Under the pieces are notes generated by a model that worked only from the letters and a program-made list of their open reading frames with translations, searched no databases and had not been told where the DNA came from. The position numbers were made by a program, and so were the translations under genes. Shown here one piece after another: positions 20,954 through 42,045 of a stretch of DNA of 64,000 nucleotides (position 1 is its first letter; each line of letters starts with the position of its first letter). Source of the stretch: Alistipes sp. (GTDB lineage: Bacteria; Bacteroidota; Bacteroidia; Bacteroidales; Rikenellaceae); the NCBI GenBank assembly GCA_022767745.1, contig JALENN010000008.1, forward strand, positions 33,538 through 97,537. Reading direction: 5' to 3'.

Positions 20954-21784
20954 ATGGAAATAAAAGCAGCAGATGTAATGAAGCTCCGCAAGATGACGGG
21001 CGCAGGCATGATGGACTGCAAGAAGGCTCTCATCGAGGCCGAGGGCGATTACGAGCGCGCCAAGGATATCATCCGTGAGAAGGGTAAGCTTGTTGTCAGC
21101 AAGCGTGCTGACCGCAGCGCTACCGAGGGCGTTGTCGTAACGAAGATCGAGGGCGGTAAGGCATATCTTCTGTGCCTTGCATGCGAGACCGACTTCGTGG
21201 CTCAGAACAGCGAGTTCACGGCTTCGGCCAACGCCATCCTCGACATCGCCGTCAAGAACGACGCTGCCGATACGGCTGCTCTGCTCGCCATCAAGAACGA
21301 CGAGGGTCACACCGTTGAGGAGATGGTGACCGAGAAGTCGGGTCAGACGGGCGAGAAGGTCGAGCTGGCTTACTATGGCCGCATCGAGGCTCCCTACTGC
21401 CACGCATACGTTCACTTCAACAAGAAGCTCGGTACCATCCTCGGCTTCAACAAGGAGGTGTCGGACGAGGTTGCCCACACCGTTGCCATGCAGGCTACGG
21501 CCATGGCTCCCATCTCGATCGACGAGAACGACTGCCCCGCCGAGACGGTAGCTCACGAGAAGGCTATCGCTCTGGAGCAGATGAAGCAGGATCCCAAGAA
21601 CGCCAACAAGCCTGAGGCTATCCTTGAGAAGATCGCCGAGGGTAAGATGCGTAAGTTCTTCGAGGAGAACACGCTTCTGAACCAGACGCTGGTGGGCGAG
21701 AAGATCTCGATCCGCGAGTACATCAAGAACGCTGACAAGGAGGCTACTGTTGTTGCTTACAAGCGTTTCGCTCTGGAGGCATAA
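20954..21784 (+). CDS. tsf: elongation factor Ts
   Basis: LRKMTGAGMMDCKKAL, CETDFVA, KIAEGK. Confidence 0.99.
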   Translation: MEIKAADVMKLRKMTGAGMMDCKKALIEAEGDYERAKDIIREKGKLVVSKRADRSATEGVVVTKIEGGKAYLLCLACETDFVAQNSEFTASANAILDIAVKNDAADTAALLAIKNDEGHTVEEMVTEKSGQTGEKVELAYYGRIEAPYCHAYVHFNKKLGTILGFNKEVSDEVAHTVAMQATAMAPISIDENDCPAETVAHEKAIALEQMKQDPKNANKPEAILEKIAEGKMRKFFEENTLLNQTLVGEKISIREYIKNADKEATVVAYKRFALEA

Positions 21785-40108: not shown

Positions 40109-40110
40109 TG

Positions 40111-40183
40111 TGGTACCACCAGGAATCGAACCGGGGACACAAGGATTTTCAGTCCTTTGCTCTACCAACTGAGCTATGGCACC
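40111..40183 (-). tRNA. tRNA-Phe(GAA)
   Basis: GGTGCCA...TGGTACC A; anticodon loop CTGAAAA; CCA not encoded. Confidence 0.97.
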
Positions 40184-40704
40184 ATCATTTGCAGGCGGTC
40201 TTCGAGATATTCGTCGGCGTTTTCACTTTCGAAGTGTTCTACCCGAACCGTTGCGAGTGCAAAGGTAAACAAAAAATCTCAATCTCCAAATCATTTATCA
40301 ATTTTTTGCGTTTTTATTTTCCCTTATCTCGTCGTGCCGGTGTGCATGTTTACGTTTGTATAGACTATAAAGTGTTGTTTATTTGTGCTTTGTGGACATT
40401 GAAGTGATGGCGGTGAAAAAAGGCGTGGATGGAGCAGTGAAAAAGCATAATATCGATATTGCTTCCTTTAGTATGGCGCCCGGTGAGGTGTGGCGGCAGG
40501 GTAGTGGGGTGCCGGTCGGCCGAATAGTCAGTATTTGTGTCGAAATCGTGTACCCGCAAAAAAGGCTTTTGTGCGGGCTTTTTATTGCCGTATTTTGTAT
40601 ATTTGCCGCAGACGGGTCGAGAGGCGCTATTGGATGTGCCGTTCCCGCCGGAAGGAAAATGACCGAGCCGCACGGATTGCGGTAACATGAAATTTGATGT
40701 GGAT

Positions 40705-41154
40705 ATGAAGTCAGGATCAATAATGGTACGTCTGGTGATGTCGCTGATGTTCACCGTCGCGGCGGTCACGGTGTCGGCGCAGGAGTGGGGCCGTCTGCCC
40801 ATTCCGAAGGCCGACCGCGAGCTGATATACAATGTGGTTAGGATAATGAATATGCCCGAAGGCAAGCATTGCATCTATAACGGCAAGGGCAATACGATGT
40901 TCGACGTGGTGTATACGATCCGTTGCCGCAAGAACGAATGGGTGGTCTATGAGGGTGGCATGGAGAGCATGTTGGATGCCTTGTATACGATTACCTCCGA
41001 CGGCAAGGGTACATATACCATCTACAAGGGCGGCATGAAGAGTATGTTCGACATTCTGTACCGTATGGAGTACTCCGACCGCGGGATGAAGCTTTACAAG
41101 GGCGATTCGTTCAGTGTGAATCCGATATATACTTACGAGCGTGACGGGCGTTGA
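40705..41154 (+). CDS. hypothetical secreted protein with four ~25-aa repeats
   Basis: Signal peptide ending VSA-Q; repeats of type Y.G....MFD.LYTI. Confidence 0.75.
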   Translation: MKSGSIMVRLVMSLMFTVAAVTVSAQEWGRLPIPKADRELIYNVVRIMNMPEGKHCIYNGKGNTMFDVVYTIRCRKNEWVVYEGGMESMLDALYTITSDGKGTYTIYKGGMKSMFDILYRMEYSDRGMKLYKGDSFSVNPIYTYERDGR

Positions 41155-41174
41155 GGCCGGTTGTGGGCGATACT

Positions 41175-41216
41175 GAAAAAGCGATGCCGCGGAATCGGAT
41201 GATTCGCGGCATCGCT
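41175..41216 (-). terminator. intrinsic terminator (minus strand) closing the tRNA-Ser transcript; may also stop the plus-strand gene
   Basis: GCGATGCCGCG...CGCGGCATCGC stem followed by TTTTT on the minus strand. Confidence 0.8.
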
Positions 41217-41559
41217 GCAATACCCTTAATTAACCTCATGGCTTTGTCAAACCATTTCTTTCCGGAGGTGGACCGATTCTCAGTCGTTAACTAGCCTCCT
41301 TCTACAAGCCGTTGTGCTGCGGTGAAATCGTGACAAAACGGCGTACCTGCTGAACCCGGGTTTGTGACGACGCTTTGTTGATTTTTCTTGAGAGACTTTC
41401 CGCGGTGCCGGACCATGCGATCCGACATTGGGCCTTTCCGCACAACTTCGGGCTTTGTGATGCAACGGCCTGATACCTTGCCTGCCCTGCCTTTCCACTA
41501 CATCGCTGGCGGTTACTGTCGTAACGCCCGGCTTTTCTTTCGGCCCTGGCCTGTCGAAG
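41217..41559 (-). ncRNA. candidate structured RNA in tRNA-Ser 3' trailer
   Basis: At least 6 stems by eye, no credible ORF, no terminator between tRNA and 41216. Confidence 0.4.
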
Positions 41560-41648
41560 CGGAAGGAGGGGGATTCGAACCCCCGGTACCCAAATTCGAG
41601 TACGTCAGTTTAGCAAACTGGTGGTTTCAGCCACTCACCCATCCTTCC
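41560..41648 (-). tRNA. tRNA-Ser(GCT)
   Basis: GGAAGGA...TCCTTCC G; anticodon loop TTGCTAA; long variable arm; TACATTTG element at 41676-41683. Confidence 0.96.
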
Positions 41649-42045
41649 AAACCGATATTCTCTAAAAGAGTGGTGCAAATGTAGATAAAAAAAATAACTG
41701 TGCAAAAAAAATGGGCTAAAATTTGAATGTAATGTGTCTCTGCCGGCCGTTATGTGCGCCGGAAGGGGTTGCAGGAGGCTTTTGTATGTGTTGCCGGGGT
41801 GTGCCGGCGGGCGGCGGCGAAGGTTTCGTCTGTGGGGCGGCATGCGGCGGGTGGGGCTGTCGCTGAAAAATATGACGTTCGGGGGCGACATATCGTGCCG
41901 ATATGGCTCGCGTGTGGCGAAAAAAGGTTATATTTGTAGTCGGCCGTCGGTTGCGGCGATGTCGCGGCCGCGCGTGGCGGATGTGCGTACGGATATGCGG
42001 GGGAGTGCCACCATGGGTCTGGCAATTCAAAATTTACGGTATAAC

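Follow-up and report, generated by a model that had tools for sequence, protein, structure and literature searches.

Why a bacterial tRNA gene should be separated from its terminator by several hundred nucleotides, and whether such a trailer yields an RNA of its own, was the question raised by the tRNA-Ser(GCT) locus of an Alistipes genome. Alistipes is a common and little studied gut genus, and no small RNAs (sRNAs) of Alistipes were described in the literature that we searched. We analysed the locus within a 64,000-nt stretch of contig JALENN010000008.1 (hereafter, the window). A previous sequence-only reading had suggested that the ~345 nt behind the tRNA formed one structured RNA released by tRNA 3' processing, with the GOLLD and ROOL classes of large non-coding RNA as a precedent.

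The tRNA-Ser(GCT) unit and its long trailer

The components of the locus are collected in Table 1. The promoter element that the sequence-only reading had placed upstream of the tRNA was indeed a match to TAnnTTTG, the consensus of the Bacteroidota -7 box (PMC7366714), and the region flanking it was alignable with relatives at 92-93% identity. The tRNA gene was followed by TTCGAC. Counting from its 3' end, the trailer ran for 342 nt without a terminator, and the terminator hairpin started at +343, in agreement with the long terminator-free stretch noticed before. The hairpin was overlooked by a simple terminator scan because its stem was bulged. Including the terminator, the full trailer comprised 385 nt, of which the conserved module described below made up ~125 nt (41176-41299). 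The neighbours were a tRNA-Phe gene and, upstream, sufB and a divergent gene for a DUF5009 protein.

Table 1. Features of the tRNA-Ser(GCT) locus, in positions of the window
Feature	Position	Strand	Evidence or remark
-7 promoter box TACATTTG, matching Bacteroidota TAnnTTTG	41676-41683	-	pattern scan
tRNA-Ser(GCT), CCA not encoded	41559-41648	-	ARAGORN; Rfam RF00005, 54.5 bits
Spacer, species-specific, purine-rich, 56% GC	41301-41558	-	unconserved, not significantly structured
P1: GGAGG (41295-41299) pairing with CCTCC (41264-41268) around the hairpin GACUGA-gaa-UCGGUC (41271-41285)	41264-41299	-	MFE fold
A-rich single-stranded linker GGAAAGAA	41256-41263	-	A-rich in 4 of 4 clade-1 species
P2: hairpin AUGGUUU-GACA-AAGCCAU	41238-41255	-	fold and alignment
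Conserved AT-rich single strand GAGGUUAAUUAAGGGUAUU, 19 nt	41219-41237	-	unpaired in all folds
Intrinsic terminator with UUUUU behind a 16-bp stem (one bulge, loop AUCC)	41176-41216	-	fold; module z = -4.4
Convergent ORF, 155 aa	40687-41154	+	sub-threshold Bflower_3 match
tRNA-Phe	40110-40183	-	

The length of this trailer was unusual in the genome, since almost all other tRNA operons ended 3-46 nt past their last tRNA, as judged from the start of the terminator hairpin behind the operon-final tRNAs among 47 ARAGORN calls. The sequence-only reading had already set this trailer apart from those of other tRNAs, and the comparison bore it out. In most Alistipes, the terminator of tRNA-Ser(GCT) was located within 10-110 nt. 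A few ARAGORN calls in the genome were over-long. Namely, a 91-nt tRNA-Lys(ctt) in the window (21239-21329, minus strand) was unreported by the Rfam tRNA model at its gathering threshold and was probably false or degenerate, and further calls comprised a tRNA-Ser(gct) of 95 nt (C10:32765-32859) and a tRNA-Asp of 96 nt (C10:292314-292409).

The 3' CCA was missing from all 47 predicted tRNA genes. Moreover, the genome encoded an RNase Z homologue (C10:114461-115351) that scored 266 bits over profile positions 2-300 of 302, below the TIGR02651 cut-off of 293; it was situated within a 560-aa open frame. Since the tRNA genes were CCA-less and an RNase Z homologue was present, endonucleolytic release of the whole trailer would be expected on the basis of known tRNA maturation. 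A pattern scan of the trailer (41217-41558) revealed no TAnnTTTG box, and thus no internal promoter was found. The trailer accordingly lacked the TAnnTTTG -7 box that belongs to the transcription start of a canonical Bacteroidota sRNA.

The cmscan search against Rfam that had been proposed for this locus produced no known family, returning tRNAs alone at gathering thresholds and only noise at E <= 10 on 41000-41800 (Ms_IGR-8 with E = 0.62 and STnc70 with E = 6.6). Several other identities of the trailer were considered and rejected. An interpretation of P2 as a tRNA-like element or anticodon-arm mimic did not agree with its loop, which in most species measured 4 or 8 nt, and no tRNA-like domain was called in 41170-41558 by ARAGORN or RF00005. 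A coding trailer was dismissed because the MRLIKGI and MALSNH frames were broken in relatives and the trailer ORFs had no Pfam match. The module itself was not coding either, since a 1-nt indel in one relative (G365) removed the ATG and no frame was kept on either strand. Finally, a mobile-element origin of the spacer was rejected: it had no plasmid or phage match and no second genomic copy, and the 3' end of the tRNA was not duplicated.

The sequence-only reading had listed six stems and four copies of GGAAAG, and all of them could be read from the sequence at the positions given for them; the spacer contained stems one to four and all but one of the GGAAAG copies. It had also held that G-U pairs favoured the minus strand, with which the U.G pairs of P2 and of the hairpin inside P1 agreed. 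A structured RNA of ~345 nt, on the other hand, was not supported by folding. The minimum free energy of 41217-41558 on the minus strand was -100.9 kcal/mol; dinucleotide shuffles averaged -100.2 +/- 5.1, which corresponds to z = -0.13, and 41 of 100 shuffles folded as well. The z-score was +0.26 for the plus strand of the same interval and -0.69 for the spacer by itself. Sliding windows of 80 and 120 nt gave values from -1.0 to +2.4, with the exception of those containing the terminator (-4.3 and -3.2). The module together with its terminator reached z = -3.4 to -5.1 against shuffles, mostly due to the terminator. As to the repeats, four copies of GGAAAG occurred in 0 of 5000 shuffles, and some hexamer was present four times in 6.7% of shuffles. 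The spacer of the window contained no tandem repeat.

Conservation of the trailer in Alistipes

When the tRNA and trailer were compared with 60 relatives by BLAST, the tRNA alone was matched, and the same was observed at a word size of 7. A scan with only the trailer over 376 Alistipes species produced matches in three genomes, namely G337, G365 and G076 (Candidatus Alistipes merdipullorum with related metagenome contigs), which together with the window made up clade 1. The matches were confined to window positions 41174-41267 and were all located behind the orthologous tRNA-Ser(GCT). As to further strains of the window species, a pattern scan of metagenomes matched G076-type contigs alone, and the contigs recovered through exact protein matches were short and ended ahead of the trailer. 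No homologue of the first ~258 nt of the trailer was found among the 376 species. The gap between the tRNA and the module was ~300 nt in G076, as in the window, and ~30 nt in G337 and G365. Thus, the long spacer was dispensable, since two species had the tRNA and the module in close proximity. Moreover, the long spacers of the window and G076 had no similarity to each other (P = 0.41). As judged from these comparisons, the first ~258 nt are a lineage-specific, fast-evolving filler. In every case the module had the same strand as the tRNA and was located 25-345 nt behind it, with or without the convergent gene.

That convergent gene was a 155-aa ORF with its own box (TATATTTG, 40598-40605), a signal-peptide-like N-terminus and internal repeats; it was confined to the window genome and the G076 lineage, and G337 and G365 lacked it at this site. 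The G076-type spacer (L057 2649-2784; also L056 and L060-L067) was a degenerate 32-nt tandem repeat of 4.4 copies with a fold z-score of -0.94, and each 32-nt unit could form a CCUUC-loop-GAAGG hairpin. Among metagenome contigs, trailers of this type differed by one 29-nt unit (357/358 vs 328/329 nt). One of them (L056, CABRIW010000025.1) belonged to a MAG labelled 'uncultured Barnesiella sp. MGYG-HGUT-01604' and carried a G076-type trailer with near-identical core, terminator and repeat spacer. The Barnesiella label or the binning of this contig looks wrong.

The module contained a 37-nt core consisting of P2 and the single strand, in which the window, G337 and the G076 type agreed at 37 of 37 positions. 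The identity of the same genomes at four-fold degenerate sites of sufB was 64-70% (0.65^37 ~ 1e-7), and the DNA on either side of the module was unalignable. Because the core was fully identical in spite of such divergence at the sufB sites and in the flanks, it is under purifying selection. Thus, by this comparison a part of the trailer is under selection, and the alignments indicate that only its last ~125 nt form the selected element.

Within clade 1, P2 varied in G365 alone, where its U.G pair was replaced by C-G; the other three members shared one sequence. The GGAG/CUCC helix of P1 was present in G337 and G076 and imperfect in G365, and the support for the P1 helix was weak. Of the six stems noticed earlier, GGAGG/CCTCC and ATGGTTT-gaca-AAGCCAT were conserved in other species; the other four were not. 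The stem of the terminator varied in sequence among species, with compensatory changes at 9 of 14 pairs. The single strand, 100% identical in three species, had a GC content of 32% compared with 59.3% for the genome, and the block formed by the linker, P2 and the single strand had 36% compared with 59%.

A second group, clade 2, consisted of five species (G002, G006, G028, G110 and G318) whose tRNA-Ser(GCT) was 98% identical. Here the tRNA was followed by a 9-bp hairpin and by a GGUUG-loop-CAACC hairpin corresponding to P2, behind which came AAAGGUUUAUUUUAGGGUAAAAGG as the single strand and then a terminator; across the clade-2 trailers, the two hairpins were succeeded by AAAGGUUUAUUUUAGGGUA and then the terminator. 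The first hairpin started 1 nt past the tRNA, which left no space for a promoter. The core GGUU.AUU..AGGGUA and the layout were common to both clades, with clade 2 being much more AT-rich, and the sequence similarity between the clades was marginal (Smith-Waterman P = 0.035). A covariance model trained on clade 1 alone (R1) gave full-length matches on 5 of 5 clade-2 trailers with scores of 17-28 bits, which fell short of significance when whole genomes were searched. As judged from these sequences, the two clades are only probably homologous. In the model-fitted alignment, 89% of the cells paired (80% for P1 and 90.5% for P2) compared with 40-50% for slid partners, and three pairs of P2 were changed on both sides (U-A/C-G, U.G/C-G/U-A and U-A/G-C); since the alignment was fitted to the model and the covariation of P1 and P2 came from few lineages, these counts were supportive and not decisive.

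A model built from both clades (R2) was run across the genus and was strong in nine species only (85-118 bits). All other matches had 42 bits or less, were terminator-like and were located away from tRNA-Ser. The distribution of the module was thus narrow (9 of 376 Alistipes species). In the rest of the genus as well as across 30 other sampled Rikenellaceae genera, R1 found no homologue and produced weak terminator-like matches without a nearby tRNA.

Two further observations were made in the course of these comparisons. At three clade-2 loci (L102, L111 and L112), GGAAGGA, the 5'-terminal heptanucleotide of the tRNA, occurred a second time 7 nt upstream (ttGGAAGGAgttgtttGGAAGGATGGG), and because of this duplication ARAGORN called a tRNA of 93 nt there. 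In addition, a number of other Alistipes (L081, L083-L087, L092, L098, L100) had multi-copy intergenic elements, with six copies in G014 and four in G036. These elements consisted of 11-nt-periodic direct repeats (GGTTATTAAGG / TTAAGGGTA) followed by an inverted array of these units, formed long imperfect palindromes and had a recurrent flank CTCGTTGCGCCTTGACCAC..TCGGAGTT. None of them was found in the window genome.

A candidate RNA from the tRNA 3' spacer and its alternatives

We tentatively favoured, with somewhat less than even confidence, the reading that the conserved module is a candidate sRNA from the 3' external transcribed spacer (3'ETS) of tRNA-Ser(GCT). The module was located where such an RNA would be looked for, in the stretch that separates the last tRNA from the operon terminator, on the tRNA strand and without a promoter of its own. 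It also possessed the 3' intrinsic terminator and the AT-rich single strand by which sRNAs of Bacteroidota are recognised. The 3'ETS origin was preferred because the tRNA genes were CCA-less with an RNase Z homologue in the genome, no internal promoter was found, the layout was sRNA-like and a precedent existed in 3'ETS-leuZ of Escherichia coli. Co-transcription with the tRNA was the economical reading, since the trailer had no TAnnTTTG box and clade 2 left no room for one.

According to the proposed mechanism, the TAnnTTTG promoter of tRNA-Ser(GCT) would drive transcription through the 3'ETS to the terminator, RNase P and RNase Z would free the CCA-less tRNA, and the trailer would come off with a 5' monophosphate. 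Subsequently, the unstructured 5' part of the trailer might be degraded, or a cut might be made in the A-rich linker, which is a possible endonuclease entry site. This would leave an RNA of ~80-125 nt shielded by P2 and the terminator. Its conserved single strand, a candidate seed or binding site, could pair with an mRNA or an sRNA in a sponge-like manner or bind a protein, and the supply of the RNA would be coupled to tRNA-Ser transcription. Here we infer the co-transcription, the excision and the stability of the module as well as any action in trans. In the sequence-only reading, release by tRNA 3' processing was a sensible inference with respect to the strand, the absence of an own box, the terminator, the CCA-less tRNAs and the RNase Z homologue; the ~345-nt structured RNA attached to it was the part that did not hold.

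A search for targets of the single strand over 6571 candidate start regions gave a best duplex of -24.9 kcal/mol, compared with -22.5 to -28.1 kcal/mol for shuffled seeds. No exact-complement 11-mer was located at a real gene start, and the best exact-complement site (C11:4275) preceded just a 14-codon ORF. We counted against a 3'ETS-derived sRNA that its distribution was narrow, that no target emerged and that the homology between the clades was only probable. Moreover, a conserved element with a terminator immediately behind it could have a cis role instead. An extended version of the same idea, which we considered very improbable, would make the trailer a tRNA-coupled regulatory RNA platform of a few Alistipes lineages, whose 3' effector part bears the GGUU.AUU..AGGGUA single strand, whose 5' side accommodates and may make use of expansions of ~300 nt, and which works as a sponge dosed by tRNA transcription. 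The lineage-specific expansions, such as the 32-nt hairpin repeat, could in that case be arrays of protein or sRNA binding sites.

The main rival to the 3'ETS-derived sRNA was a role in cis at the terminator, although we regarded it as rather unlikely. The hairpin and the single strand would then aid termination, precursor stability or 3' maturation of the tRNA-Ser unit, for example as a dock for a ribonuclease or another protein, and would do nothing after processing. This could account for the position of the module directly upstream of the same tRNA's terminator in all nine species, for a distance to the tRNA that varied freely and for the lack of a trans target among the start regions searched. 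However, ~35 other tRNA operons of the genome ended with a plain hairpin at 3-46 nt and had no such element, and most tRNA-Ser(GCT) genes of Alistipes did without the module. A sequence-specific single strand of 19 nt is also unneeded for intrinsic termination, and it is difficult to see how a maturation signal could work from a variable distance of 60-345 nt to the RNase Z site. It was more improbable still that the conserved sequence functions as DNA, in which case GGTTAATTAAGGGTA would be a single copy of the TTAAGGGTA-type 11-nt repeats, maintained as a protein-binding site or inherited as a remnant. The motif GGTT.ATT..AGGGTA did match the multi-copy arrays of 11-nt-periodic direct and inverted repeats in many other Alistipes, and the core contained the palindrome TTAATTAA. 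Yet there was exactly one copy and no array in the window genome, and the palindrome was broken in G365, where the remainder was kept. The fixed orientation and position relative to the tRNA and the terminator, as well as the U.G pairs and RNA-type compensatory changes of the adjoining hairpin, also argued against a DNA element, and simple inheritance did not explain 37 of 37 identical positions at 64-70% neutral identity.

If the trailer had no function, its 3' part included, it would represent read-through with conservation by chance or mutational coldness. The narrow distribution and the missing target would fit, but three lineages shared the identical core at the sufB divergence given above, the DNA on both sides of it was unalignable, and the motif was kept in a second and much more AT-rich clade. 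We therefore judged the absence of any function to be very unlikely. The least credible reading took the entire ~345 nt behind the tRNA as a single large structured ncRNA that is released from it and represents a new class, and this was largely refuted. What spoke for it was the trailer length, which was unusual for the genome and recurred in the G076 lineage (328-358 nt), and the fourfold GGAAAG. The folding results of both the trailer and the spacer contradicted it, with the terminator as the sole structured window, and the spacer had no homologue in 376 Alistipes species, plasmids or phages. In addition, the long spacers of the window and G076 were unrelated, G337 and G365 had no such spacer, and the one in G076-type trailers was a 32-nt tandem repeat with polymorphic copy number and no better fold than z = -0.94. 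The sequence-only reading had itself named a lack of conservation and a folding energy like that of shuffled controls as grounds for giving it up; both were found for three quarters of the interval, and the last quarter was different.

The module can thus be described as a lineage-restricted conserved element at the 3' end of the trailer and a reasonable candidate for a tRNA-trailer-derived sRNA. Lineage-specific sRNA candidates of comparable quality are common. If the module gives a stable RNA, the supply of a regulator would be hard-wired to tRNA transcription, in a phylum reported to be without obvious Hfq or ProQ. It would then be, to our knowledge, the first case in Bacteroidota of a candidate regulatory RNA that stems from a tRNA 3'ETS. 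The initial guess of 345 nt was narrowed to a 125-nt element with a 19-nt candidate functional site, and the covariance model R2 and nine species are available for testing it.

Comparison with known RNAs

Some members of GOLLD and ROOL adjoin tRNA genes. Unlike them, three quarters of the present trailer was unconserved and folded like shuffled sequence, and it had neither an Rfam covariance-model match nor the large multi-helix fold conserved over the whole length that characterises these and other large ncRNAs. In eukaryotes, the tRF-1 (3'U-tRF) fragments are pre-tRNA 3' trailers of ~15-30 nt that are freed by RNase Z/ELAC2 and end at the Pol III U-run. Similar to tRF-1, the module would be freed by an RNase Z cut after the discriminator of a CCA-less precursor, whereas its trailer is bacterial, exceeds 100 nt and has hairpins and an intrinsic terminator.

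Closer parallels can be drawn with bacterial sRNAs. Bacteroides are reported to have no obvious Hfq or ProQ, and their sRNAs (such as GibS) contain a hairpin, an extended AT-rich single strand and an intrinsic terminator and tend to have long AT-rich seeds (PMC7366714). The module resembled the intergenic sRNAs of Bacteroides in its layout, relatively low GC content and narrow phylogenetic range. On the other hand, those sRNAs have a TSS and promoter of their own, unlike the module, which had no TAnnTTTG box and was placed on a tRNA transcript. Nor was the module related, by sequence or through Rfam, to a Bacteroidales RNA described so far.

The nearest counterpart was 3'ETS-leuZ of E. coli, which PMC8166272 describes, after Lalaouna et al. 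(2015), as an excised tRNA 3'ETS with the role of an sRNA sponge. The E. coli RNA is 53 nt long, Hfq-dependent and released by RNase E. There was no sequence relationship between the two, and the module was ~125 nt within a 385-nt trailer rather than 53 nt. Furthermore, RNase Z instead of RNase E would release the module. Like 3'ETS-leuZ, however, the module was situated in a tRNA 3'ETS on the tRNA strand, had no promoter of its own and ended at the operon terminator, and in both cases the RNA would be freed by tRNA 3' processing and act via a short single strand.
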